64,000 bases of DNA. It comes from Gammaproteobacteria bacterium. Its GTDB lineage: Bacteria > Pseudomonadota > Gammaproteobacteria > JAURND01. The stretch covers positions 1,400,308 to 1,464,307 of the forward strand of contig JASGJS010000001.1 in the NCBI GenBank assembly GCA_047601185.1, read 5' to 3'. Position numbers and translations under genes: made by a program. Positions 25,714 to 40,983 of this stretch are shown here, piece after piece. Position 1 is the first letter of the stretch. Every line of letters starts with the position of its first letter. The notes below the pieces were generated by a model. The model was not told where the DNA came from. It did not search any database and saw only the letters and a program-made list of their open reading frames with translations.

Positions 25714-25790
<77 letters not shown>

Positions 25791-26110
25791 GTAAAATCAA
25801 GGCTTCGCGAAGGTTGACCAGTGAGGCAGCAAGAAACGTGTCGAAGATGTGTCGAATAAATAATTAAAGGAAGGATTTACATCATGTCATTCCTTATTGA
25901 AACATTGGCGAGATGAATCAGGTCATGGACAAACTTCAAAAATTGAAGAAACTGAAGCATATACAGTAAAATATCAGCCAGAGATGGTCGCTATCCCTTA
26001 AATATATACTTCTTTGATGCTTCCAGCGCTAATATTTGAAATATTAGCTAAAGAATTTTATTTTTTACGATATCGCTTGAAATAATTATTTTTATCCCCA
26101 TTTAAGAGTA

Positions 26111-26366
26111 ATCCTGCCAATTAGGGTAGTGAGTATATGGTTAATGACGTCAATAAGAATGTCGCACATCCGGTAACAATAGTTGTCGTGAATGTGTTGG
26201 TAATAATTATTGAATTTCACAATGGTGCATAATATCATAATGATTATTTGTTCTCCATTTGGATCATACCATACAATGTTCAAGTATATATTTACCGAAA
26301 GGGATTGGCTTATAGCCTTCAGTCTAACGGAGGGTTGGTGTCGGTAACCTTATTCCCTCCGTTAAG
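26111..26366 (+). ncRNA. DRT2-associated template ncRNA (boundaries approximate)
   Basis: Lies directly upstream of the RT. Has a 5' hairpin (26111-26127), an internal stem (26164-26197) and a 3' stem TAACGGAGGG/CCCTCCGTTA (26325-26364). Split antisense -10/-35 elements flank a 138-nt template. Confidence 0.85.
26135..26272 (-). other. Predicted cDNA repeat unit (138 nt) encoding a Neo-like never-ending ORF
   Basis: Only one minus-strand frame lacks stops; concatenation gives TTGACG-17 nt-TATGAT and keeps that frame. Confidence 0.8.
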
Positions 26367-26375
26367 TGAGAAAAT

Positions 26376-27944
26376 ATGGACATATATCAATATTTTTTTG
26401 ATAAAAATGCTTTATACAAAGCAGAATTCAAAAATAAAGGCTATATACATTTTGACCACGAATTCTCGCTTAATAGGGTGTTTAAAGCATTAGCCAAATT
26501 AAAAGATACAAAACTTATATCTCATGCCTTTTATCCATTTATTCGCTTTACAATCCCTAAATATAAGCGTGATGAAAATGGAAAAAGTTACATTGACAAT
26601 GAGAACCCTCGCTACATCATACATACCGCCAGGGTAGACAGCAATATTTATTCTTTTTATAGAAATATTCTCATGAATAAATATGAAGAATTACTAAAAA
26701 AGCTAAATATAAATGAATGTGTAATTGCTTATAGAAAAATTCCCATTAGAGCAAATTCTAAGAAAAATAAATGTAGTGTCCATTTTGCCAATGAAGCAAT
26801 AGAAGAAATAAAGCGTCAAGTTCTCAGCGAAAAAAATTCAGGTTGTTACGCAATTGCATTAGATATCAAGGGCTTTTTTGACAATTTAAGCCACGGAATT
26901 ATAAAACAACAATGGTGTAAAGTAATAGGATCTAATAATGGTCTACCACAAGATCATTTCAAAATATATAAAAATATTACCAAATACCGTTATATAGATG
27001 TTGAAAAACTAGAAAATCTCTTGAACATCAACTTTGAAAAAATATATCAAAAAAATAATAAGATCAGAAAACAAAACGAAAATTTAAAACTCGGCTCAAA
27101 TGACCCGCCCTCCCCCAATCTAAAATTATGCACTGATGAGGACTTTAGAAATATTATAATACCTAATTTAGAAGAAAAAAAACAACTTGGTATCCCGCAA
27201 GGCACACCCATATCTGATGCTATCGCAAATATGTACATGTTAAACTTTGATGTTGCAATGCAAAAACTTGCTATAAAGAATAATGGTTATTATCGCCGCT
27301 ATTCTGATGATATTTTACTAATACTCCCACAGTGCTCAGTTAAAAGATCGATTAGAATTATCAATTGGTTACTCAAATATACAACAAAAACCCTAAAAAT
27401 AAATGCCAAAAAAACTGTTGTTTCAAAATTTTCAAAAAATGACTCCTCAATAGTTTGCAACACTTACAAATTAAAAAATGATATCGAATGCGAAATGGTC
27501 GGAAAGCCATTTGAATACCTTGGTCTATCCTTTGATGGAAAAATCATTAGATTGAGAAAATCAACAATCTCAGCCTTTTACATCAAATTAAGTTCTAGGA
27601 TAAAAAAAGAAGTTAAAATTGCAAAATTTAAGTTAAAAAAACGTGGCAATAAATACCCAACAGCTTCGGAAATATATAAAATTATTAGTTTTGACATGAT
27701 TTATAATTCATATATGGAATGCAGAGAGCCGGAAGAAAAATTCCTGGGAAATTTTTATACCTATGTCAATTTAGTATCAAAAGTTACAAGTTCTCTCCAG
27801 ATTAAAGATATCTTTAACAACTTGGAAAACTGGATTAAAAAAAGAGCTAAAAAATATTGTGTTGACACAGAAAAAAAATATAGAAAACTTAAGTCGTATC
27901 ATAGAAATTTTCCGTCGACGTGTACGGCTCTAGAAAAAGCTTAG
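26376..27944 (+). CDS. drt2: Antiviral reverse transcriptase, DRT2 (UG2) type
   Basis: KGYIHFD, HAFYPF, DIKGFFDNL, QWCKVIG, LPQDHF.IYK.IT, GIPQGTPIS, YRRYSDD and YLG.SFDG, matching DRT2 motifs as I recall them; very AT-rich. Confidence 0.9.
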   Translation: MDIYQYFFDKNALYKAEFKNKGYIHFDHEFSLNRVFKALAKLKDTKLISHAFYPFIRFTIPKYKRDENGKSYIDNENPRYIIHTARVDSNIYSFYRNILMNKYEELLKKLNINECVIAYRKIPIRANSKKNKCSVHFANEAIEEIKRQVLSEKNSGCYAIALDIKGFFDNLSHGIIKQQWCKVIGSNNGLPQDHFKIYKNITKYRYIDVEKLENLLNINFEKIYQKNNKIRKQNENLKLGSNDPPSPNLKLCTDEDFRNIIIPNLEEKKQLGIPQGTPISDAIANMYMLNFDVAMQKLAIKNNGYYRRYSDDILLILPQCSVKRSIRIINWLLKYTTKTLKINAKKTVVSKFSKNDSSIVCNTYKLKNDIECEMVGKPFEYLGLSFDGKIIRLRKSTISAFYIKLSSRIKKEVKIAKFKLKKRGNKYPTASEIYKIISFDMIYNSYMECREPEEKFLGNFYTYVNLVSKVTSSLQIKDIFNNLENWIKKRAKKYCVDTEKKYRKLKSYHRNFPSTCTALEKA

Positions 27945-28068
27945 ATTGTAAATTCTTAAAAAACATCTCCGTTTTCATATTTTAGAGGCTTTGATATGGC
28001 TTATGAACATTCTATTTGATTTTTATAGAGCAATAATAACTTAAATTTAGCCACTATTGCTCCTTAAT

Positions 28069-28374
28069 TTAAAAAACAGAAAACATAATATGTGGCACCA
28101 CCACACCAACAATGATTCCCATCAACATTGTCGCAGCAAATCGGAGTTGCCCGCAAAAGAACTCATGACGCTCTAGTCTTTTGACAACATCATCTATATA
28201 GACTCTGGCTGCGGCGACTTGTTCGTTGATGGCTGACAACCGCCGCTGACCAGGGCTATTGTAAGGATAATTCTGGCTAGTAGTGGGGTCACTAAAAACA
28301 TCCCGGACTAAAAACCCGAGATGTTCAATGATTTTTTGTGCCTGTTGGGCTTCTTTTTGAATGATGCGATTCAT
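28069..28374 (-). CDS. Small hypothetical protein with C-terminal TM helix
   Basis: 101 aa; ATGA overlap with the upstream gene. Confidence 0.6.
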   Translation of the reverse strand: MNRIIQKEAQQAQKIIEHLGFLVRDVFSDPTTSQNYPYNSPGQRRLSAINEQVAAARVYIDDVVKRLERHEFFCGQLRFAATMLMGIIVGVVVPHIMFSVF

Positions 28375-28661
28375 TTTGATACCTCCGCCTGCATTTTAAC
28401 GGTCATACAGGGCTCTGGCTTCTGGTAGTTTTCTTCAAATTCCACCAAAGATTGCTGGCTTTGTTGATATGCGCTATCCAGCAAATCGCTGATGGTTAAT
28501 AAGTAGTTATGAATCAAAGACTTAGGATAATGCAGAAAAGAGCCATGTAGCGCAATTTGAAGTAAAGCATTTGCTTTACTTAGTTGGTCATGGATCGTTT
28601 CAATCGAACCCATTTGTTGGTTTACGAGAGATGAAAAGTGGTTTAGGCTATCTGTAGCCAT
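28371..28661 (-). CDS. Small helical hypothetical protein
   Basis: Strong RBS AAGGAGG before the ATG. Confidence 0.7.
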   Translation of the reverse strand: MATDSLNHFSSLVNQQMGSIETIHDQLSKANALLQIALHGSFLHYPKSLIHNYLLTISDLLDSAYQQSQQSLVEFEENYQKPEPCMTVKMQAEVSK

Positions 28662-28741
28662 ATTGGCCTCCTTAGAAGGTTGATTTTGGTTAGTGGCGCG
28701 TTTGTGTTAATGGCACTGCGCGTCACGCTGCTTCCTTTTTT
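28655..28741 (+). ncRNA. Putative cis-antisense RNA (SymR-like architecture)
   Basis: TTTACG(28621)-17-TAGGCT(28644) promoter, hairpin 28693-28726 and T-tract; covers the RBS and ATG of the 28661 gene. Confidence 0.45.
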
Positions 28742-28849
28742 ATAAGAAATATAAGGAATATCAAGAAGCCTATAATTTATCTTTATCTTTGTCAAGAGGT
28801 TTAAAAATATAGTATTCTCATACCTTACCAAACCTGCGAGGAATTCAGA

Positions 28850-29077
28850 TTGTCTCATCCTGAAACTAGTAAAAAAATGAAACCTATTAAAAGAAGCTAT
28901 ACCTTTGTCCAGCTTGATTTGGATAATCTTGAAAAGATCAAAGATACGGCGCTTAACCGTAAGCTGGTATTAACTGATAGCCAAGTAGTTAGGATGGGGT
29001 TAATAATGTTGAGTACTGCTAGCGAATCTGAGCTAGAAGCAATGGCTCAGAGAGCACCAAAGCTACCAAGGCGTTAA
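28850..29077 (+). CDS. Small putative DNA-binding (RHH-like) protein
   Basis: Beta-helix-helix pattern (RSYTFVQL, DSQVVRMGL). Confidence 0.5.
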   Translation: MSHPETSKKMKPIKRSYTFVQLDLDNLEKIKDTALNRKLVLTDSQVVRMGLIMLSTASESELEAMAQRAPKLPRR

Positions 29078-29512
29078 TATAGTTTTACACTCGAAATTTA
29101 ATATAATATATAATAGTTAAGTGAATTTAGATTTAAAATTTTCCCGTTAGAACTTCCCACAATCGAGTTACCCCAATTGCGCGGCGGATTGATTACCACC
29201 GATTCGCCCCATTTACTTTAATGTTGAATCAAAGTATGGCCAGACTGATCGCGCCATATCGATGTAAGTCATCGATACCTCATTTTATTGCCTTTTTATT
29301 TCCTCCTATTCAAATTGGTTAGCATTAATTAAAAAAAGTTTGATCTCTATAAATAACTGATGAAACCAAACCAGGATTCACTTTATTTGGTAACCGTGCA
29401 AAGTGAGAGCACGAAACGCTTCAGGTGCGTTTGTCCATACATACTTTATTTATACTCTTTTCTTTATAATTGGCAAGTGTTTTTGGGAGTTTTGAAAATA
29501 AAATCGACACCC

Positions 29513-31601
29513 TCATCGCAAGTAGACTTCAGTAATATCAGGGCGAAAATGGCCGAGCTCTTGGCTTACAATACTTAAAGCCGCAGCATATAATAAGCCT
29601 TGTTGTTGCAATTCTTGCATGCGCTGTTGAGCATAACCATGTCTTAACCCATGTGCGCCATGTGACCAATGAAATAAACGTTTGCTGGCTGATGAAAAAC
29701 TATTAGACCATAATTTCCCGCCGCCGATGTCATAATATTGATGGTAATGGATAGAACGATCCGTGACATCGATTGGCCGAGCAAGCCTTCTTGCTTCCAA
29801 TTGCATTGCCAGCTCTATTGGAATGAGCACTTCTCGAATTAACCCTCCTTTTCCGGTAACCGTATATAAATTACCTTGTCGACCTAAAAATCGTTGTGAA
29901 GACCATTGTCGATGTGTGCTCGCAGCGCGTTGTGCTTGTGGCCGTAACGTCAGTAGCTCATGCGCTCTTAAACCAGCAGCTCCGGCAATTTGAGTTGCTA
30001 AGCAATGTCGATCGGTCTGTGATTGTGCGATTGTATCGATTTGCCAAAGTGTGTACGCTCGACTTTTAAGTGTCAACCCCCCATTTTTAGTACAACGCAT
30101 AAGTAGAAATCATAGCATTTCCCTATATTGCTGTGGTGTCAAATGCCCCAGCGACTGATGGGGTCTTTCCAGGTTATATTCCTGTAACCATTGATCAGTT
30201 ATGGCTTGCACGTGGTTAATATCCTTAAATAAATGCACACCTAATACTTCTTCACGATAAGTACGATTAAATCGTTCGATATAAGCATTCTGTGCTGGTT
30301 TTCCTGGCTCAATATGACGAAGCTTTACACCATGTTTTTTGGCCCAATCAAACATTTCTTTTGAAATATTCTCAGGGCCATTATCCACCCGAAGCTGCAT
30401 AGGATAACCATGCTTGATAGATATCCAATCTAAAAACGCTGTTACCCGTTTAGCAGGTAATGATAAATTTGCTTGGATTCCCAATGCTTCCCGATTGCAG
30501 TCATCCAGTACATTCACAGTGCGAAATCGCCTACCATTTGCAAGTGCATCGCTCATGAAATCCATCGACCAGCTTTCATTCATTTGCATTGGCCAATTCA
30601 ACGCAGTTTTCTCTCTCTGTGGCAGTCGCCTTTTGGGCTTACGTCTTAAATTTAATTTTAAATCACAATAAACCCTATAAACACGCTTATGGTTCCATTG
30701 ATAACCTTGTTGTCTGAGTTTTTGAAACATCTTTTCAAACCCATAACGGCGATACCTAATGGCTAAATCCTGCAGAGCACATTTAATCTCCTCATCATTT
30801 TCTAATTTATGAGAATATCCAAAAACTGAACGACTAATGTTCAATAATCGGCAGGCTCGATTTAGGCTAATTTGATGGGTTTGAATTGCATAATTAACCC
30901 ATTCTCTACGCTCTACTGCCGTAACTATTTTTTTTCGAGAACATCTTTCAATACCCGATAATCCAGGCTTAATTCAGCATACATATGTTTTAAGCGCTGA
31001 TTTTCTTCTTCTAGCTGTTTTAAGCGTTTTACATCTGATTCGATCATTCCATTAAATTTGTTCCGCCAGCTATAAATCGTTGCCTCGCTAATGGCATATT
31101 TTCGGCTTAAATCGACGATGGGCACACCGGCTTCAAGCTCTTTTAAAATCCCAATTATTTGGTTTTCAGTAAATCTCGTTTTTTTCATTGTAGAGTCCTC
31201 TTAGTTCGACTAGTTTATCGGAAAACTCTACTTATGGGTTGTACTATTTTAGGGGAGGATTACCTAAGCATTTGTGGCAGTTCGGAGCGAATGACGAGAA
31301 GCTTTATGCCTAAGTGCAGCTGTATCGCCTGACGTTCTTGGTCGAGCATTTTTTGACCGACTACCTGGCAGCGTTCTCCCAGATATTCTTTAGCAATTTC
31401 CACCGTTAATTGTTTCAATCCTCCCAGTTTATTTTGCTGAAGCCATTGTGTTAACTGCATCAATGCTTGAGTATAATTTCTAGCTGTACCCAAGCTATGA
31501 ATTGTTTTCTCATCTCGATGCGTATGGCATGCTTGTTTTAAGTGCAATTTTTTCTGTACGGCATGAGACGCTTGTTGCTTTGCAGAACGAAAACTAGGCA
31601 T
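29513..31601 (-). pseudogene. Tyrosine-recombinase-domain protein split by IS3
   Basis: Removing the IS and one TAAG restores a 296-aa ORF (PQMLKSRAYT) with GLRAHEL, GKGG, HGLRH, LGH and YLR; paralog of 53406-54374. Confidence 0.88.
30071..31264 (-). mobile_element. IS3-family element (IS407-like), copy 1, 1194 bp
   Basis: orfA 30925-31188 and orfB DDE 30110-30844 joined by an A-run frameshift; TSD TAAG. Confidence 0.96.
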
Positions 31602-31602
31602 T

Positions 31603-31860
31603 TTAAGTTTGCTCCAGAGGATTTAATTCCGGTAATCGTTTTAGGTAGCGCATAATAGTAGAGAAGCTGCATTTTAGCCGCTTATGTTTTCGCAACCATA
31701 GGGCTAATTCGCGATAGCTGGCACCAGCACGGCGTAAGGCTACGAGTTCAGCACGGTAACGATCTAACCGCGACACACGGAATTTCTTTTGCAAGCAAAG
31801 TTGTTTGTAGTGACGCACTTCTTGTAGGGCAACTGTTGCATCAAAATGTAGTATAGGCAT
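31603..31860 (-). CDS. Small HTH protein coupled to the recombinase-like gene
   Basis: SRLDRYRAELVALRRAGASYRELALWL; homologous to the C-terminus of 54352-54864. Confidence 0.75.
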   Translation of the reverse strand: MPILHFDATVALQEVRHYKQLCLQKKFRVSRLDRYRAELVALRRAGASYRELALWLRKHKRLKCSFSTIMRYLKRLPELNPLEQT

Positions 31861-31886
31861 TGTTGTATCTCCTGGCTGTAGGTCCA

Positions 31887-31935
31887 GCCCCGCTGTGCCT
31901 AAATGAGAGTTTTTGCGAATTAGGCACAGCGGGGC
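31887..31935. repeat. 16-bp perfect inverted repeat
   Basis: GCCCCGCTGTGCCTAA / TTAGGCACAGCGGGGC. Confidence 0.8.
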
Positions 31936-31996
31936 GAGAAGGCTTAAAAGTTTTGTAAGCTCGCAACACTCAGCTTGTGAATTTACCGTTTTTAAG

Positions 31997-32196
31997 TTGT
32001 CCGATCTGTCCTTTTTGTCCTGAGAAATAACCCATTGATATCATGATGTAAAATAAACAAAGTCATCAAAATTAAGGGTTTTTCTGACTCATTCCAAATT
32101 GTCCCGGGACAATGCGTTTTTCTTAGAAATGTGGCTATTTTTTTAAGATAACTCTTTGCTCTATAAACAATTATTTTCCTGGGACAAAAAGGACAA
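31997..32196. promoter_or_regulatory. Putative replication origin (symmetrical TGTCC/GGACA iterons)
   Basis: TGTCCTTTTTGTCC 32007-32020, palindrome TTGTCCCGGGACAA 32099-32112 and GGACAAAAAGGACA 32182-32195, just downstream of the helicase gene. Confidence 0.6.
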
Positions 32197-32207
32197 CTTA
32201 AATTAAG

Positions 32208-33905
32208 TTATTTATTCTCCAATTCCTCCCAGATTTTTTCTGTAAAAACATAGCATCTCGATCGACCCATTTGAGGCAAATATTCACGCCGATAAGGGTT
32301 CCCTGCATGATCGCCAATTAAGCAATTTGCTTTTAATAGCCATTGACTAACTCGTCTAAAATCTAACCCCTGACACAACTCACGTTTAAACACTTCGGTT
32401 AAAACGTAGAAATATGTAACACCGTCAACAATTTTTTTAAAACCCGCTCTATTCGGGGTAGGTGGTGCAGAGTCGCTCATATACCAACTGCTAAAACGAG
32501 ATGCCCCATGTTTTTCAAAAAAAGCTCTCACTTGAGACAATGCATGCTGATATTCTAAATTTCCTGAATCTCCACGTTGCGACAGCCAATCTTTGAAACA
32601 TTTCGCTATATTTTGCGTTGCTTCACCCGGTTGCCATCCGGTGATCTCAAAATCTGTAGCCAACTCACCGGCAACAGCAATCAGTGCAAAACGCTCACAA
32701 ATACGATGAACTTGACCGCTGCTATTGGTCGGCAAATATTGCTTAACGAAATGTCGACATAAACTATCGAGCATCGAGGGTAGAATGTTCGATATAGAAA
32801 GTTGTGTAATACTTTCGAGAAAGGCGATTGCGGCGGTACCATAACAATTACTGGCTGCTTGAGTTAATTGCTGACTAAATTGTGCGGCAGAAAGCCCTGA
32901 AGGAACCACTTCAAATAACCCTTGCCCCATTCCAGCATCAGAGGGGATGTCGGCCATACGCACCATTTGGCCTACTTTGACGCGTTTACCACTCTCAGAT
33001 AAATGTTGCTCTAAGCTAATTTCACCCGCAGATAAGAATAACAGCCGCCAATTCTGAGGAGTGCAGATATTTCCGCGCTTATCGGCTCGAATTTTCCCAC
33101 TGCCATTAGCCAACATATAAGCCACCTCGCCAGCTTCTTTAGCATCGACTTGGGCTAATTCGTCCAGTACAAGCAAAGTATCTGAACGCATCGCCGCTAA
33201 AGTTTCAATCCCATTTGCAGTGGCGCGCCATCTTTGCATAAAGCCGGGAGGACCAAATACAGAAGCCGCCACGCGTAAAGCTGTTGTTTTACCTGTACTC
33301 GATTCGCCGACCAAATGGATGCCGCCCGATTCAGCGCCAGCAGGTTTTAAGAGCAAAGCCGCAAAAGCAGCTGAGATCGCGAGGATTAACCTAGAATTTC
33401 CAGCGCATAATTTTGCGATTTTCTCTTGCCATTCTGCCAAATTGCCAGCAGAGGCAAAATCGTTAGCAGAATGCGGCGTTTTGAGAATGATTCGCTCGGT
33501 TGTCTCCCCGATGATTTTATGCGGTAACACAAACACGGAATGATGCCAGCCGATCTGCTGCACACAGCGAGCGCGTTGTGTAGTTATGCTACTGGCAATA
33601 TGCTCTAATAGTAAATGGCGTACCTTGAGACCAGGCGCAATATCTAATCCCAATCGTAATAGCTCCGCACATAATTCATCCCCGTTGCCCCTCAACAATT
33701 CCATCGGCATAGTCCACAGATGTAATTTTCCGTCTGCGTCTTTAAACTCTAATAATCTAGCCCAATTTTCAGATACTTTGTCTCGAACCATGGCAACCAC
33801 TTTTAAAGGTCCACAAATTTTATGAGAGCCTGCTTCATCCTGGTAATAGATACCTGTTTCGGAAGCGATTAATTTTTTAAGAGGAACTGCATTACCCGTT
33901 GACAT
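32208..33905 (-). CDS. DUF927-domain (Cch-like) replicative helicase
   Basis: Walker A GESSTGKT, WRATANG, LDEL, YMLANG.GK.RA and GQMVR motifs. Confidence 0.9.
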   Translation of the reverse strand: MSTGNAVPLKKLIASETGIYYQDEAGSHKICGPLKVVAMVRDKVSENWARLLEFKDADGKLHLWTMPMELLRGNGDELCAELLRLGLDIAPGLKVRHLLLEHIASSITTQRARCVQQIGWHHSVFVLPHKIIGETTERIILKTPHSANDFASAGNLAEWQEKIAKLCAGNSRLILAISAAFAALLLKPAGAESGGIHLVGESSTGKTTALRVAASVFGPPGFMQRWRATANGIETLAAMRSDTLLVLDELAQVDAKEAGEVAYMLANGSGKIRADKRGNICTPQNWRLLFLSAGEISLEQHLSESGKRVKVGQMVRMADIPSDAGMGQGLFEVVPSGLSAAQFSQQLTQAASNCYGTAAIAFLESITQLSISNILPSMLDSLCRHFVKQYLPTNSSGQVHRICERFALIAVAGELATDFEITGWQPGEATQNIAKCFKDWLSQRGDSGNLEYQHALSQVRAFFEKHGASRFSSWYMSDSAPPTPNRAGFKKIVDGVTYFYVLTEVFKRELCQGLDFRRVSQWLLKANCLIGDHAGNPYRREYLPQMGRSRCYVFTEKIWEELENK

Positions 33906-34170
33906 AAATACCTCCCATTGGCTGAGAGTATTGTGAAGTCGATTGCAAAGATAAATATTGGTTGAGCCAGTTTTGAATATCGGCTTTGCGATACCTGACT
34001 AATCGACCAATCTTGATAAAGGGGACACCCGTACCAGCCCAGCGGTCGCGCTCTATAGTGGCAAGAGAACAATCACGAATTGCTGCAATCATTTCTTGAG
34101 TGAATAAAGCAGAATCAGGGGCGGATTCAAATTCAACAATTAAATTTAAGCGGTTTTTTTCAATTTTCAT
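33892..34170 (-). CDS. AlpA/excisionase-like HTH protein
   Basis: SLATIERDRWAGTGVPFIKIGRLVRYR. Confidence 0.85.
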   Translation of the reverse strand: MKIEKNRLNLIVEFESAPDSALFTQEMIAAIRDCSLATIERDRWAGTGVPFIKIGRLVRYRKADIQNWLNQYLSLQSTSQYSQPMGGIYVNG

Positions 34171-34272
34171 AAAGCTTGCTCCAAATAATTAAAAACAAGC
34201 TTTATCATGCAATAAAATTTTTCTACAGTGTGGTAATTACAAAAAAGTTTTTTACAATTACCGGAAGAGAAC

Positions 34273-34971
34273 TTATTTTTTGTTGCTAGGCCTTTCTTCT
34301 TCTATCATTTCTAATGCTTCAGACAGCTTTCGATTTAAACTTTTTAATCCTACTAATTCTAGTCCTAGGTCTTGAGCTTTTTTGGTAAGGGTGTCAGCTA
34401 TTCGATAAACATTCAGTTTATTGCCTCGACAATATCGTGGAGATCTTTTTCCTTCATCACCGATTAATAAGTAAACCAAAATTCCGATAGTTTTTAATAG
34501 GTTCCGTCTTTCACGTGTGGTCAACGAGGATTCATGAACAATGGGTTCTTCAATTATCTTCTGTGGGGCATCCATTACAGCCATTGGTGAAGATGCCTCC
34601 TTTACTGGCCCTAAATTACTGTCTTCTTGTATTGATTCAGCCTTTTGTTGTTCCCGCTCAAACCGCTTCTTAACGACACTCAATAAGGCGGACGGAATAG
34701 GCAGCTCTTTATTAATAGCTTCTGTTAAAATTGAATAAGGATGAATGCCGGTATAGCCATTTTCATTATATCTACCCCACCATGGTACTGAGTTCAATAA
34801 AAAATATGTCTTCTGCACAGTCAAAAATTCAGTAGGAATATCGCGATTATTTATTCTTAAAGACCGATGATTGAATGGTTCGCGTCGGTGTAGGAGCAAC
34901 GCAGCTTCCTTTATGGTCCAAGTATCTTTTTTAGCCCAAAATTTGTAATCAGGCTTTTCCATAGGTTGCAT
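34273..34971 (-). CDS. Hypothetical island protein
   Basis: 232-aa ORF (WTIKEAALLL) upstream of the excisionase-like gene. Confidence 0.65.
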   Translation of the reverse strand: MQPMEKPDYKFWAKKDTWTIKEAALLLHRREPFNHRSLRINNRDIPTEFLTVQKTYFLLNSVPWWGRYNENGYTGIHPYSILTEAINKELPIPSALLSVVKKRFEREQQKAESIQEDSNLGPVKEASSPMAVMDAPQKIIEEPIVHESSLTTRERRNLLKTIGILVYLLIGDEGKRSPRYCRGNKLNVYRIADTLTKKAQDLGLELVGLKSLNRKLSEALEMIEEERPSNKK

Positions 34972-35039
34972 AGATTAATTCCTCAATATGATTCAGTTCC
35001 GGTTGATTTACCAAAATTCTTGGTACTTAAAACTCATTA

Positions 35040-36233
35040 TGTCAACCCCCCATTTTTAGTACAACGCATAAGTAGAAATCATAGCATTTCCCTATATTGC
35101 TGTGGTGTCAAATGCCCCAGCGACTGATGGGGTCTTTCCAGGTTATATTCCTGTAACCATTGATCAGTTATGGCTTGCACGTGGTTAATATCCTTAAATA
35201 AATGCACACCTAATACTTCTTCACGATAAGTACGATTAAATCGTTCGATATAAGCATTCTGTGCTGGTTTTCCTGGCTCAATATGACGAAGCTTTACACC
35301 ATGTTTTTTGGCCCAATCAAACATTTCTTTTGAAATATTCTCAGGGCCATTATCCACCCGAAGCTGCATAGGATAACCATGCTTAATAGATATCCAATCT
35401 AAAAACGCTGTTACCCGTTTAGCAGGTAATGATAAATTTGCTTGGATTCCCAATGCTTCCCGATTGCAGTCATCCAGTACATTCACAGTGCGAAATCGCC
35501 TACCATTTGCAAGTGCATCGCTCATGAAATCCATCGACCAGCTTTCATTCATTTGCATTGGCCAATTCAACGCAGTTTTCTCTCTCTGTGGCAGTCGCCT
35601 TTTGGGCTTACGTCTTAAATTTAATTTTAAATCACAATAAACCCTATAAACACGCTTATGGTTCCATTGATAACCTTGTTGTCTGAGTTTTTGAAACATC
35701 TTTTCAAACCCATAACGGCGATACCTAATGGCTAAATCCTGCAGAGCACATTTAATCTCCTCATCATTTTCTAATTTATGAGAATATCCAAAAACTGAAC
35801 GACTAATGTTCAATAATCGGCAGGCTCGATTTAGGCTAATTTGATGGGTTTGAATTGCATAATTAACCCATTCTCTACGCTCTACTGCCGTAACTATTTT
35901 TTTTCGAGAACATCTTTCAATACCCGATAATCCAGGCTTAATTCAGCATACATATGTTTTAAGCGCTGATTTTCTTCTTCTAGCTGTTTTAAGCGTTTTA
36001 CATCTGATTCGATCATTCCATTAAATTTGTTCCGCCAGCTATAAATCGTTGCCTCGCTAATGGCATATTTTCGGCTTAAATCGACGATGGGCACACCGGC
36101 TTCAAGCTCTTTTAAAATCCCAATTATTTGGTTTTCAGTAAATCTCGTTTTTTTCATTGTAGAGTCCTCTTAGTTCGACTAGTTTATCGGAAAACTCTAC
36201 TTATGGGTTGTACTATTTTAGGGGAGGATTACC
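35040..36233 (-). mobile_element. IS3-family element, copy 2
   Basis: Same orfA/orfB; TSD ATTA. Confidence 0.96.
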
Positions 36234-36664
36234 ATTATTCTTCATTGTAACGTAAACATATTTAATAAAACAAACAATTTTTTTCGAAACAAAACCAAGG
36301 ATTTAACGATATTTAATCTATATTAACGTTTATTAATCGACATCGAAAAATATGGAAAAATATCGAAGGATAGAGAAGAATAACGGAGTTAAAATTTTTT
36401 AGGAGCAACGGACTAAAATCACGAAGAGAGGGCAGAGAAGGACACAATAGAGCATTACCGATTTTTGACATGGATTAAATCCATATCAAAACTGCAGTCC
36501 AATTATGGTTGAGCCTGTGACATATGGAAGTGAGAAGCTAGTGAGCATGGTTAAATTTGGACAATGTCTTCTCGTTATCTGGGTTTGTCCATACGTCTTA
36601 GGAGGTCATCTGGTGTGGAGTGATAGTCCAAATATTCATGGAGTATTTTTGATTATTTGGTGAC

Positions 36665-37720
36665 TTATTGTTTTTTATTAAGCTCTGCTTCTATTTCTTC
36701 AATAGTAGGTAGACTCGTTTTAAGATTTTTGGGGAGGGATTTGGCTAATTTATATTCAGACACACCCATTGGGGCATTAACATTTTGTAAAGCATATTCT
36801 GCGATGATTTTGCTTTTTGACTTACAAAGCAAAATACCAATGGTACGATTATCCCCATCTTTACGCATTTGATTATCTACGGCTGCAAGATAGAACCCTA
36901 ATTGACCCGTATGCTCTGGTTTAAATTGAGTAGCTTTTAATTCAACTACCACAAAGGCTCGAAGATTTAAATGATAAAATAATAAGTCTAGAAAAAACTC
37001 TTGGTTATCGAAGGCTAAGGGCACTTGAGATCCTACGAAAGCAAAACCTTGGCCGAGCTCTAATAGGAAGTCACGAATATGAGTAATCAAAGCATTTTCA
37101 ATCGCTCTTTCATGGGCTTTGCCTTCAATTGTCAGAAAATCGAAATGATAAGGATCTTTAAGAATTTGGTTGGCTAAGTCTGATTGATCGGGAGGAAGAT
37201 GTTGACTAAAATTGGTTATTTTTTTATTTGGCTCTGCCTGACGTTCATATAACCCGGTTTCAATTTGCATTTCTAAGATAGAACGCGACCAACCATTTCT
37301 TATAGATTGCTGGATATACCACTCACGCTCTTGTTGGCCCTTTATTTGATGCAAAAGCACGCCAATGTGCCCCCATGGTAATTGGTCCACAAGCTGTGGA
37401 CTTTTTCCAAAATAAGGATATTCTTTAGCAAAAATACGCATTCTTTTTAAATTTGTGATAGAAAATCCTTTCATCTCGGGAAATAAGCAACGCATATCTT
37501 TTGAAAATTGCTCTAAAAATTGTTCTCCCCATTTGTGCATTTTTTGTTTATAAATCAATTCGTTACCCAACTCCCAATAAAAATGAATCAGCTCTTTATT
37601 AACAGTTATTGCTGCTCGAATTTGGGCATTTTTCAACCGCTCTTTGATTCCATTCAAAAAATGAGTATATTGTTCATCAAAACGTAATGCTGTTCCCAAC
37701 TTTGGTAATTGTTTTTTCAT
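36665..37720 (-). CDS. YhcG/DUF1016 PD-(D/E)xK nuclease
   Basis: LPWGH, KDPYHFDFL, LLELGQGFAFVG, DLLFYH..L..FVVVELK and GQLGFY motifs. Confidence 0.92.
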   Translation of the reverse strand: MKKQLPKLGTALRFDEQYTHFLNGIKERLKNAQIRAAITVNKELIHFYWELGNELIYKQKMHKWGEQFLEQFSKDMRCLFPEMKGFSITNLKRMRIFAKEYPYFGKSPQLVDQLPWGHIGVLLHQIKGQQEREWYIQQSIRNGWSRSILEMQIETGLYERQAEPNKKITNFSQHLPPDQSDLANQILKDPYHFDFLTIEGKAHERAIENALITHIRDFLLELGQGFAFVGSQVPLAFDNQEFFLDLLFYHLNLRAFVVVELKATQFKPEHTGQLGFYLAAVDNQMRKDGDNRTIGILLCKSKSKIIAEYALQNVNAPMGVSEYKLAKSLPKNLKTSLPTIEEIEAELNKKQ

Positions 37721-37744
37721 ACATTTATTCCATTTATAATTATC

Positions 37745-38950
37745 TTAAGAGGTTTTGATTGCTATTATGCCAGTTTTTTCAAGGATATAATCTGTAATTT
37801 GCTGCATGGGCTTACGCAATCTTTCAACATCGCTGACAATATAACCTGCCGTCACATCGTGATTCATCTTATGGTTCACCAAGCGCTTAAGCGCATAAGC
37901 CGAGATATCCAAGCTTTCCGCGATAGTGATAAAGGTACGACGCAGGTCATGCAGCATAAAAACAACTCCAGAGGCTGCAATCACTTTAGCTACCTGCTTA
38001 CGTGGATCAACAAGGTAACCCTTAGCGCCAGCTCCTGGGAAAACGTATTCACTTGTAGTCTCCTCCTTGCGCCGAACCAATAATTCCACCAAAAAATTGG
38101 ATAAAGGCAAAGTATGCGGCTGATGATTTTTAGGATCAGGCAAAGTCAAAGTATGCGCCATTAAATCTACTTGTTCCCATTTTAATGTCATGGCTTCTTC
38201 TCGTCGTAAGCCAGTAAATAATAGCAGTAACAAATAATCACGCAATACGGTATTTTGAATATTTATTACCCCCTTGTACCAGAGGATCAATTCATGGGTT
38301 TTAACAAAATTTTGTCGTTTGTGGATCTTATACCATGCTCGAGTTTGCGACAGTCGTCTGACAGGGTTTTCCGTAATAAGCGATTGGCCTTTGGCATCCT
38401 CATACTCTCCGGCAGCAAAATTAAAAATCGCTCGCAGGTAGCGCATAGCCAAATTAGTCCTAGCCTTGCTGCGCTCGCCCAACTGGGTATGCCGCTTGGC
38501 AATCATGTCTTTACTGATGCTCAATAAAGGTTTGTTCTGCCAGTCGGCAAAGGCTTCGCGCATCACCCGCTGGTAATCGAATACTGTGCTAGGTTTCAGG
38601 GTTTTTCTGGCTTTGAGGTAATCCTCAAACACCTGCTTAAGTGTAATCACTTTGATCCTAGCTTCTTTCTTTTCAGCAATAGGGTCAATCCCAGTGGCGA
38701 TCTTACCCAGCAACTTTTGTCCCTCACGCCGTGCCTGCTCTGCCGTTAATTCAGGGTAGCGCCCCAAGGTAATGCGGCGCAACTTACTCTGCGCCAGCTT
38801 TTCTACAAAAAAAGCCTTGGTTCCACCTGATGTCACCCGCACCCCAAATCCTTTCATAACCTCATCGTAATATCGCTTCTGTGCCGTCTGGCCTTCCACA
38901 GTAGAAACAGGTAACGGCAGCTTATCTACCATCAGCTTAGTAATCTTCAT
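37745..38950 (-). CDS. Integrase (tyrosine recombinase with arm-binding domain, P4-like)
   Basis: GFGVRV, TLGRYPEL, TGLRREE, HDLRRT and VNH..VTAGY motifs; ATG at 38950 preferred. Confidence 0.94.
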   Translation of the reverse strand: MKITKLMVDKLPLPVSTVEGQTAQKRYYDEVMKGFGVRVTSGGTKAFFVEKLAQSKLRRITLGRYPELTAEQARREGQKLLGKIATGIDPIAEKKEARIKVITLKQVFEDYLKARKTLKPSTVFDYQRVMREAFADWQNKPLLSISKDMIAKRHTQLGERSKARTNLAMRYLRAIFNFAAGEYEDAKGQSLITENPVRRLSQTRAWYKIHKRQNFVKTHELILWYKGVINIQNTVLRDYLLLLLFTGLRREEAMTLKWEQVDLMAHTLTLPDPKNHQPHTLPLSNFLVELLVRRKEETTSEYVFPGAGAKGYLVDPRKQVAKVIAASGVVFMLHDLRRTFITIAESLDISAYALKRLVNHKMNHDVTAGYIVSDVERLRKPMQQITDYILEKTGIIAIKTS

Positions 38951-39109
38951 AGGTTTTTCCGTGTCGAATATGTGTCGAAGGTATAAATAAAAACTGTTCA
39001 AAGAACTTAGGACGGATTGTGGAATAAAAATCTTAATAAAACAAGTACTTTTTGAGATTTTAAAAACGTGTCGAAGTGCTTAAAACCTATTAAAATACGG
39101 ATTTTTGGA

Positions 39110-39156
39110 ACTCATAATCCCTTGGTCCTAGGTTCGAGTCCTAGTGGGCCCACCAG
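39110..39156 (+). repeat. att site: duplicated 3' part of tRNA-Ile2
   Basis: Identical to 25745-25791. Confidence 0.95.
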
Positions 39157-39265: not shown

Positions 39266-40983
39266 CTATGCTACCAATTTTTCTGCAAGTATAGTTTCTA
39301 TATATGGATTTATAGTTTTCAAACGCTCAACATGTTTGGTAATCCTCCCCTAAAATAGTACAACCCATAAGTAGAGTTTTCCGATAAACTAGTCGAACTA
39401 AGAGGACTCTACAATGAAAAAAACGAGATTTACTGAAAACCAAATAATTGGGATTTTAAAAGAGCTTGAAGCCGGTGTGCCCATCGTCGATTTAAGCCGA
39501 AAATATGCCATTAGCGAGGCAACGATTTATAGCTGGCGGAACAAATTTAATGGAATGATCGAATCAGATGTAAAACGCTTAAAACAGCTAGAAGAAGAAA
39601 ATCAGCGCTTAAAACATATGTATGCTGAATTAAGCCTGGATTATCGGGTATTGAAAGATGTTCTCGAAAAAAAATAGTTACGGCAGTAGAGCGTAGAGAA
39701 TGGGTTAATTATGCAATTCAAACCCATCAAATTAGCCTAAATCGAGCCTGCCGATTATTGAACATTAGTCGTTCAGTTTTTGGATATTCTCATAAATTAG
39801 AAAATGATGAGGAGATTAAATGTGCTCTGCAGGATTTAGCCATTAGGTATCGCCGTTATGGGTTTGAAAAGATGTTTCAAAAACTCAGACAACAAGGTTA
39901 TCAATGGAACCATAAGCGTGTTTATAGGGTTTATTGTGATTTAAAATTAAATTTAAGACGTAAGCCCAAAAGGCGACTGCCACAGAGAGAGAAAACTGCG
40001 TTGAATTGGCCAATGCAAATGAATGAAAGCTGGTCGATGGATTTCATGAGCGATGCACTTGCAAATGGTAGGCGATTTCGCACTGTGAATGTACTGGATG
40101 ACTGCAATCGGGAAGCATTGGGAATCCAAGCAAATTTATCATTACCTGCTAAACGGGTAACAGCGTTTTTAGATTGGATATCTATCAAGCATGGTTATCC
40201 TATGCAGCTTCGGGTGGATAATGGCCCTGAGAATATTTCAAAAGAAATGTTTGATTGGGCCAAAAAACATGGTGTAAAGCTTCGTCATATTGAGCCAGGA
40301 AAACCAGCACAGAATGCTTATATCGAACGATTTAATCGTACTTATCGTGAAGAAGTATTAGGTGTGCATTTATTTAAGGATATTAACCACGTGCAAGCCA
40401 TAACTGATCAATGGTTACAGGAATATAACCTGGAAAGACCCCATCAGTCGCTGGGGCATTTGACACCACAGCAATATAGGGAAATGCTATGATTTCTACT
40501 TATGCGTTGTACTAAAAATGGGGGGTTGACAGTTTCTTTTCTGCTGTCACGAATATGGGACAATAAGAAGCTTCAACGAATTGAAATGCGTCGGCAACCT
40601 GCTCTTCGGCAGGAGCCACCTTATGTTTTATTTCTATGAAAAATAAATACATCCTTGTTGAAATAAGCACCCTTAAGGCTGGATATAGCTCTACATTATT
40701 AGAAAAAGTCAAAAGTTGGGTATTTGATAGATTTATTCTATATTGACTTAAGGCTTCCTTGACTACACCAAAAGCTTGTGAAGTAGAGTCTTTGAGCTGC
40801 TGCCACCATTTTGTCGAATACTCTATTAAACTTCCTTTAGTACGAAAAGGGGAGGAAGAGGAAGTTGTATAAGAAATACGACCGCCTTTAAGTGATTTTT
40901 GTCTTTTAATGAGAGAAGATGCATCATTAAAATGTATCCCCTCAAGAATCCCCTCCAGAGAAATGGTTAGAAATAAGGTAAGT
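39266..40983 (-). pseudogene. Gene remnant split by IS3 copy 3; PIN-like C-terminus
   Basis: Removing the IS gives in-frame VADAFQFVEASYCPIFVTAEKKHVERL; no convincing start codon. Confidence 0.5.
39338..40531 (+). mobile_element. IS3-family element, copy 3
   Basis: orfA 39414-39677, orfB 39758-40492; TSD GTTT. Confidence 0.96.

Follow-up and report, generated by a model that had tools for sequence, protein, structure and literature searches.

A DRT2-type cassette was located at positions 26108–27944 of a 64,000-nt stretch of DNA from a Gammaproteobacteria bacterium (assembly GCA_047601185.1, contig JASGJS010000001.1), and the whole of this stretch is referred to below as the window. The cassette consists of a noncoding RNA (ncRNA) followed by a gene for a reverse transcriptase (RT), and the coordinates of all features are collected in Table 1. 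From sequence comparison, RT and ncRNA together probably make up a copy of the known DRT2 anti-phage system that is divergent but intact. To our knowledge, a gene written solely as complementary DNA (cDNA) is known from DRT2 alone. We consider it likely that the cassette is a functional DRT2, in which a 138-nt template is copied into a concatemer carrying a promoter and a stop-free, Neo-like repeat. The point of reference is DRT2/Neo of Klebsiella pneumoniae, which has a 120-nt repeat and ACA borders (Wilkinson et al. 2024, PMC12039810; Tang et al. 2024, bioRxiv 10.1101/2024.05.08.593200).

Reverse transcriptase and noncoding RNA

The class of the RT was established by profile searches and a PDB search, and its position among DRT2-like RTs by a tree. 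Its best profile match was PADLOC Drt2 PDLC03757 (E 5.8e-110, 366.7 bits), and the best non-Drt2 PADLOC family was RT_UG17 (E 6e-21); the profiles of Drt9 (3.3e-11) and of retron RTs (~1e-10) matched far more weakly than Drt2. Over residues 18–487, the RT gave an end-to-end alignment with 9c0i_A, a solved Drt2 chain from Klebsiella (E 1.6e-61), and group II and retron RTs reached only ~6e-4 in the same search, compared with ~1e-61 for Drt2 chains. Pfam gave RVT_1 alone, with no fused effector domain. All invariant columns of a 22-sequence clade alignment are kept in the RT, including YSDD in the block YRRYSDDIL, and the closest proteins in a large protein collection are 58% identical to it. 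In a FastTree analysis of 125 DRT2-like RTs (sequences of <380 amino acids or with internal stops were dropped; support is local only and rooting is by midpoint), the RT fell into a seven-row clade with support 100, referred to below as the window clade. A first-pass annotation of this DNA, made from the letters alone, had called the RT DRT2-type and proposed a phylogeny as a check; profile search and PDB match agree with that call, retrons and other classes being far weaker matches.

Upstream of the RT, the sequence from the hexamer TTGAAA to the RT start aligns with that of the relatives L081/L082, L083, L084, and L001 and loosely with that of L011 (L numbers denote compared DRT2 loci). The position of TTGAAA is shared by the window, L081/L082, L083, L084, L001, and L011, and the hexamer is followed 16–17 nt later by TATATC, TATATA, or CATATC in the aligned relatives. 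A consensus promoter scan did not list this element; from its conservation, we infer that positions 26077–26104 function as the ncRNA promoter.

For the secondary structure of the ncRNA, RNAalifold (six sequences) missed the template-closing stem, and helices were therefore set by hand and counted. Over 25 hand-set base pairs in an eight-sequence alignment with seven relatives, 95.4% of cells pair as compared with 41–50% when the partners are slid, a comparison that is flattered because the helices were derived from the same sequences as were counted. Compensatory changes were found at six pairs, and 0/500 shuffles reached that number. The window RNA folds with a minimum free energy of −69 kcal/mol (z −2.39). 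A candidate outer helix (26129–33 with 26291–95) is 84.6% paired but shows no covariation. Searching Rfam at E ≤ 1 gave no family for the ncRNA, just the tRNA and sub-threshold chance matches. A covariance model of the 3′ scaffold (R1) scored 98 bits in the window and gave nine matches in 100 sources, all from the clade, and 0 in 63; with 0 matches in 154 loci outside the clade, it linked no Klebsiella-type ncRNA to this scaffold. The structured noncoding region that the first-pass annotation had described ahead of the RT is thus supported by conserved pairing and compensatory changes.

The position of the ncRNA relative to the RT differs in two relatives. In L080, the ncRNA (L080:4444-4710, minus strand) lies just downstream of the RT (L080:2989-4446, plus strand) and is convergent with it, ending at the RT stop codon. 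In L085, a complete ncRNA (L085:1168-1434, minus strand) likewise directly follows the RT on the opposite strand and ends at the RT stop codon. Both inverted ncRNAs have the handle, the 138-nt template with split promoter and open frame, and the scaffold, which indicates that the RNA module can be inverted relative to the RT.

Split promoter, repeat period, and open frame on the antisense strand

On the minus strand of the ncRNA region, an extended −10 element lies genomically upstream of a −35 element, in the wrong order for a promoter. When 138-nt units of the window are joined head to tail, the two elements become separated by a spacer of 17 bp, made up of 8 + 9 nt across the junction. With a 17-bp spacer required, the period came out at 138 nt for the window, L081, L083, L084, L001, L080, and L085, and at 120 nt for L011. 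When the −10 hexamer is read as two codons, the frame so defined contains 0 stops in 7/7 distinct 138-nt units, as against 2–5 in the other frames, and the units of the relatives are only 45–61% identical to that of the window. By shuffling, this frame was open in 2.8–4.9% of shuffled clade units; in 5000 shuffles of the window unit, it was open in 3.1% and any frame was open in 7.8%. In the relatives, an in-frame ATG follows 5–8 nt past a GGAG-like motif. Differences between close pairs of units fall in excess on the third codon position (4/4/11, 4/5/11, and 3/3/6 by position).

For a wider comparison, 126 unique DRT2 loci were taken from 160 sequences, after removal of duplicate upstream regions, of matches lacking part of the N terminus, and of sequences in which the upstream DNA was too short; the loci were chosen by their likeness to the window clade and kin are not independent, so that frequencies among them do not describe DRT2 overall. 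A wrong-order promoter pair combined with an open frame and a period that is a multiple of 3 was present in 57/126 upstream regions on the antisense strand, 11/126 on the sense strand, and 2/126 after shuffling, using the best wrong-order promoter pair of each region.

The genomic minus-strand frame of the window is open over 255 nt from stop to stop and is therefore longer than one unit. As a consequence, the open frame alone does not fix the period; this is done by the 17-bp spacing and by a conserved AAC microhomology. In the cDNA sense, AAC (GUU in the RNA) is conserved at an offset of 138 nt, at both sites throughout the window clade, and with the arrangement (−35)-N5-AAC the junction falls 8 nt past the −35 and 9 nt ahead of the −10. 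Klebsiella-type borders (ACA-1 and ACA-2, with TGT 6 nt past the −35 and 11 nt ahead of the −10) are not conserved in the window clade.

Most of what the first-pass annotation had read from this region was borne out. The motifs it listed, as well as the open reading frame at 26376–27944, are all present at their coordinates. The wrong-order promoter, with its 17-nt spacer on joining of 138-nt units, was confirmed in the window and is kept in 7/7 distinct clade members. Only one frame of the unit is stop-free, with GGAG ahead of the ATG at 26238, and the other two contain 3 and 4 stops per unit. The repeat length is a multiple of 3, 138 nt being 46 codons. The frame of the proposed repeat peptide held, but its two border residues differ when the junction is placed after the conserved AAC. 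Of two candidate border pairs, the GTT microhomology (26140–42 and 26278–80) proved to be the conserved one; the other, ATA 26135–37 with ACA 26273–75, which had been named as the template borders, matches at 2/3 bases only, and relatives read ATT or ATG in those columns. Overall, its interpretation as an intact, divergent DRT2 with a hidden antisense gene agrees with the RT class, the conserved ncRNA, and the promoter, period, and frame kept across the clade.

The same mechanism could nevertheless operate with another junction or period, using either the ATA(26135)/ACA(26273) borders, also at 138 nt, or a 171-nt unit with a −35 element TTGGCA at 26120–26115 in the handle. ACA is the published motif (PMC12039810; Tang et al.) and is present at 26273–75, and a 171-nt period is divisible by 3, open, and equal in score to 138 nt in a relaxed promoter scan. 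That scan passes 102/129 loci, is too permissive, and misplaces the −10 in Klebsiella-like loci, and conclusions were drawn from the stricter scans. In the relaxed scan, TGT is shared at the promoter-defined offset in 0/102 loci, whereas AAC is kept at both sites in the window clade, and the ATA/ACA pair has the incomplete match and variable columns described above. A template of 171 nt would have to extend to the predicted RNA 5′ end and take in the handle hairpin, and this hairpin is scaffold rather than template in the solved Klebsiella ribonucleoprotein (PMC12039810). Furthermore, the TTG of the 171-nt −35 is kept in 4/7 clade members, compared with 7/7 for the 138-nt −35, and the 171-nt unit has no conserved border repeat. 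A 171-nt period is unlikely, and we regard a different junction or period in general as improbable.

The sister locus L011 (L011:2725-2991; RT 45% identical, 120-nt period) has the border AAAC, set 14 nt ahead of the −10 and 3 nt past the −35. Two of its frames are open, and the promoter-aligned one is without an ATG. Its template-closing stem takes in GUU-2 in the right half, as has been described for Klebsiella ACA-2.

With the GUU-bordered, 138-nt template, a mechanism can be proposed by analogy to Wilkinson et al. (PMC12039810) and Tang et al. (bioRxiv 10.1101/2024.05.08.593200). Transcription of the ncRNA (about 26108–26375) would start at a promoter of its own and probably include the RT gene, and the RT would be bound by way of the 5′ handle and the 3′ scaffold of the ncRNA. 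Copying of the template by the RT would then proceed from 26277 down to 26140, whereupon the cDNA end …AAC, templated by GUU-1, would re-pair with GUU-2 (26278–80) and copying would restart, generating head-to-tail 138-nt repeats. The stem 26135–40/26269–74 may re-form behind the enzyme and so mark the end of the template. In double-stranded cDNA, every junction would set TTGACG 17 bp upstream of TGG-TATGAT, giving a sigma-70 promoter with no chromosomal counterpart. The resulting transcript, with GGAG, ATG, and a stop-free 46-codon repeat, would be translated into a Neo-like repeat protein that arrests the infected cell (abortive infection). In this scheme, the phage trigger, the synthesis of both cDNA strands, and the translation and toxicity of the repeat are all inferred from the Klebsiella system. 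AlphaFold2 modeling of one 46-amino acid repeat (seven-row alignment) gave low confidence (predicted local distance difference test, 64.6) with helices at residues 11–25 and 33–45; the model would be compatible with the helix–loop–helix reported for Neo, but is too weak to use.

Candidate jump signals across the DRT2 family and comparison with Klebsiella

The AAC border was then considered across the family without making use of the reading frame. The antisense strand of the 330 nt upstream of each RT was scanned for AAC-N9-(−10-like) together with TTGnnn-N5-AAC. This geometry was present as 32 pairs in 31/126 loci; the distance between the two AAC sites was divisible by 3 in 29/32 pairs, with lengths of 81–144 nt, and all 29 of these have an open frame. 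As controls, the sense strand gave 1 pair and twenty shuffles gave 23 pairs, distributed 9/7/7 by remainder. When 64 trinucleotides were combined with 12 geometries summing to 17 nt (129 loci), AAC (9,8) ranked first. TGT (11,6) was among the three with the next-highest count (14 pairs, of which 11 are divisible by 3 and 10 of those 11 open), showing that the method recovers the published Klebsiella architecture. Donor and acceptor carry an identical base ahead of AAC in 15/27 unique pairs (6.7 expected; 3/2000 shuffles as high), and an identical base following AAC in 7/27 (6.9 expected). A match before AAC and not after it is what would be predicted if the nascent cDNA end pairs up to, and not beyond, AAC. 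Periods across the family ranged from 81 to 153 nt in this analysis, a range in which 138 nt falls.

In the RT tree, with motif labels assigned by simple regular expressions, the TGT loci and a 425-amino acid reference formed a separate 11-row clade (support 98), and AAC loci were scattered over many branches. AAC-type loci such as L107, L006, L064, L003, and L086 share with the window the AAC-9 nt-(−10) and (−35)-5 nt-AAC geometry, the triplet period, and the open frame. They differ from it in having periods of 81–144 nt, an often longer microhomology (up to 7 nt), RTs that are 29–40% identical, and ncRNA scaffolds unmatched by R1. We hold it possible, with doubt slightly outweighing belief, that AAC/GUU in the 9/8 geometry is a second and perhaps more widespread DRT2 jump signal, of which the ACA pair would be a Klebsiella-like special case. 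If this is true, a simple AAC rule would read out Neo genes in divergent DRT2 clades that are hard to annotate, and the ncRNA module, convergent and downstream in two relatives, would be movable relative to the RT.

For the window locus, the sequence comparison shows the RT class, the structured RNA, the split promoter, the period, and the open frame, as well as their conservation. With Klebsiella DRT2 the locus shares a single RT gene after a same-strand ncRNA (about 270 nt), an antisense −10 before the −35 with a 17-bp spacer only across the repeat junction, and a repeat divisible by 3 with one stop-free frame and a ribosome-binding site and ATG within it; a template-closing stem and a 3-nt direct repeat at the template borders are also common to both. 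The two systems differ in several respects. The window RT has 522 amino acids, compared with 425, is ~33% identical, and carries insertions near residues 220–240 and 365–378. The borders are GUU/GUU in place of ACA/ACA, the distances from the junction to the −10 and to the −35 are 9 and 8 nt (11 and 6 nt in Klebsiella), and the repeat measures 138 nt as against 120 nt. By R1, no similarity to the 3′ scaffold was detected in the 154 loci outside the clade, and GUU-2 is located 4 nt beyond the closing stem, whereas Klebsiella ACA-2 is inside its right half. As is proposed for the window locus, DRT10, DRT9, and retrons use an RT and a dedicated ncRNA to make defined DNA for phage defence; in contrast to it, they are described with protein priming, short repeats, homopolymers, or multicopy single-stranded DNA, and with no gene created.

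DRT2 neo synthesis and its broad conservation were already published in 2024, and the novelty claimed in the first-pass annotation was overstated. On sequence grounds, the locus departs from the described type in its clade, in the 9/8 geometry and GUU sequence of its border, in a scaffold without recognisable similarity, and in its larger RT. Literature searches found no text on a GUU/AAC-type DRT2 junction; fig. S6 and the supplementary tables of Tang et al. may already cover the clade. The published rules (ACA borders, 111–129-nt repeats) were drawn from a single Klebsiella system and its near kin; the present comparison suggests that split promoter, triplet period, and open frame extend to a distant clade with another jump signal and another RNA scaffold. 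A testable rule for finding hidden cDNA-only genes follows from this locus and its relatives, and GUU and ACA offer a natural signal pair for studying how an RT chooses its jump site. Both the 46-codon repeat gene, as the first-pass annotation had said, and the ncRNA would be missed by genome annotation.

Two relatives of the window clade were noted in other settings. L082, which shares the 138-nt layout and has a 56%-identical RT, is part of a 49,621-bp contig that is also included in a viral-contig collection, which indicates that the clade can travel on phage-like elements; L164 is contained letter for letter in L082. L002 (L002:2983-4272) has a 56%-identical RT from which about 80 N-terminal residues are missing; no ncRNA match lies within 3 kb of it in either direction, and it is probably a decayed cassette.

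Alternative readings and genomic setting

Several observations weigh against a functional DRT2 with a hidden repeat gene at this locus. The RT scored below the NCBIfam NF041746 Drt2 equivalog cutoff (311.7 versus 390 bits), on account of which it probably would not be named Drt2 in annotation, and it is only ~33% identical to a 425-amino acid cluster (238 member sequences) that is taken to be the Klebsiella type from its length and tree position. The −10 of the ncRNA promoter is weak. The template-closing stem has one A-C mismatch in the window. The microhomology of the clade is just 3 nt long, and the GGAG–ATG spacing of 14 nt in the window is suboptimal, being two codons longer than in relatives. 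Because clade members are related, counts such as 7/7 are not independent. Finally, the ratio of nonsynonymous to synonymous differences per site (pN/pS) is 0.60 in the Neo frame as compared with 0.64–0.68 and 0.88–0.92 elsewhere, pointing to weak amino acid constraint. With the ratio only weakly lowest in this frame, the main constraint would be the absence of stops, as has likewise been described for Klebsiella Neo (Wilkinson et al., PMC12039810).

The same ratio, which barely sets the Neo frame apart from one other frame, bears on the possibility that RT and ncRNA are active and that the cDNA, or some other untranslated product, is the effector, with the antisense frame not translated. Tang et al. 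describe Neo annotation as difficult in divergent clades and alternative mechanisms as possible, which also speaks against a translated repeat, and the two open frames of the sister L011, with no ATG in the promoter-aligned one, would fit as well. A noncoding product would, however, have no need of an open frame, a triplet period, or GGAG and ATG, and it is these that are kept: the same frame is free of stops in all seven units, AAC periods are nearly all divisible by 3, and GGAG with an in-frame ATG is retained in the clade. We consider an untranslated effector quite improbable.

Decay of the cassette was considered as a further explanation, according to which it would be a silent or decaying relic, borne on an island and inactive in its host. 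The weak −10 of the ncRNA promoter, the long Shine–Dalgarno–ATG spacing, and the closing-stem mismatch would be expected of such a relic; the RT was found in 0/8 other genomes of the same order (three of them just 63–67% complete), and the truncated L002, with no ncRNA within 3 kb, is probably a relative of this kind. Against this, the RT is intact over 522 amino acids with every clade-invariant residue, YSDD included, and all RNA helices and both promoter halves are present, making a relic very improbable. Extended −10 promoters can function without a −35, and the 63-amino acid minus-strand open reading frame 26283..26092, which appears in the table of open reading frames, could on that basis be an ordinary small gene driven by the extended −10 alone; this is hardly credible, as towards its 3′ end it simply reads the conserved RNA handle in reverse complement, relatives have a stop just upstream of the unit, and the wrong-order −35 and the AAC pair would be left with no role.

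The cassette lies at the tRNA end of a probable integrative island (Table 1). The two copies of the 25-nt repeat are located at 25766–90 and 39131–55, and an exact pair was seen in 0/100 shuffles. G+C content is ~30% over the cassette as compared with ~40% around it. Judged from its family, the nuclease-family protein is likely a second defence cargo of the island.

Table 1. Features of the DRT2-type cassette and of the surrounding island in the window
Feature	Position	Strand	Basis or remark
Likely ncRNA promoter: −35 TTGAAA 26077–82, 16-nt spacer, weak −10 CATTTA 26099–26104	26077..26104	+	conservation
Putative DRT2 ncRNA, ~265 nt, ends approximate: 5′ handle, template, 3′ scaffold	26108..26375	+	alignment, covariation
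5′ handle hairpin, CUGCC/GGUAG stem	26114..26129	+	5 pairs, 95% of cells paired, 2 pairs changed on both sides
Template-closing stem, left and right arms	26135..26140, 26269..26274	+	6 pairs, 93.3% paired, one-sided changes only
GUU-1, proposed last templated bases per round (cDNA end …AAC)	26140..26142	+	AAC 5 nt past −35 in 7/7 clade units
Proposed 138-nt repeat unit, one 46-codon Neo repeat, frame starts at 26277	26140..26277	−	one stop-free circular frame
−35 element TTGACG of proposed junction promoter	26148..26153	−	TTG kept in 7/7 clade members (TTGACT, TTGCCT, TTGCGT)
In-frame repeat ATG	26236..26238	−	14 nt past GGAG
Shine–Dalgarno-like GGAG	26253..26256	−	same place in window, L081, L083, L084, L080, L085; GGAA in L001
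Extended −10 TGG-TATGAT, genomically upstream of −35	26263..26271	−	TGnTAnnAT in 6/6 loci scanned
GUU-2, proposed landing site of nascent cDNA end	26278..26280	+	138 nt from GUU-1; AAC 9 nt before −10 hexamer in clade
3′ scaffold	26278..26373	+	hairpin 26307–26317; long stem 26326–34/26355–63; inner stem 26337–39/26347–49
DRT2-class RT, 522 amino acids, YSDD active site	26376..27944	+	profiles, clade alignment
Integrative island, 13.4 kb, cassette at tRNA end	25766..39155		exact 25-nt direct repeat of tRNA-Met 3′ end
DUF927 protein	32208–33905	−	island cargo
HTH protein	33892–34170	−	island cargo
YhcG/DUF1016 PD-(D/E)xK nuclease-family protein	36665–37720	−	PADLOC candidate defence family PDC-S02, E 3.8e-142
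Tyrosine integrase	37745–39001	−	island cargo
rve-type insertion sequence (IS) transposase, 244 amino acids, three copies	30110–30844, 35079–35813, 39758–40492	−, −, +	identical Pfam scores

Just downstream of the RT, two overlapping small open reading frames of 101 and 96 amino acids (28069–28374 and 28371–28661, minus strand) were found, with no Pfam or PADLOC match and no counterpart beside DRT2 in 159 loci. Together with those at 29513–30100 and 31260–31601, they were considered as parts of the system and rejected, having no Pfam or PADLOC match and not being conserved beside DRT2 elsewhere. A SymR-like Rfam match at 28656–28729 was sub-threshold (32.9 bits versus a gathering score of 61). 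Two of the IS transposase copies are inside the island, and one (39758–40492) is located just outside attR.

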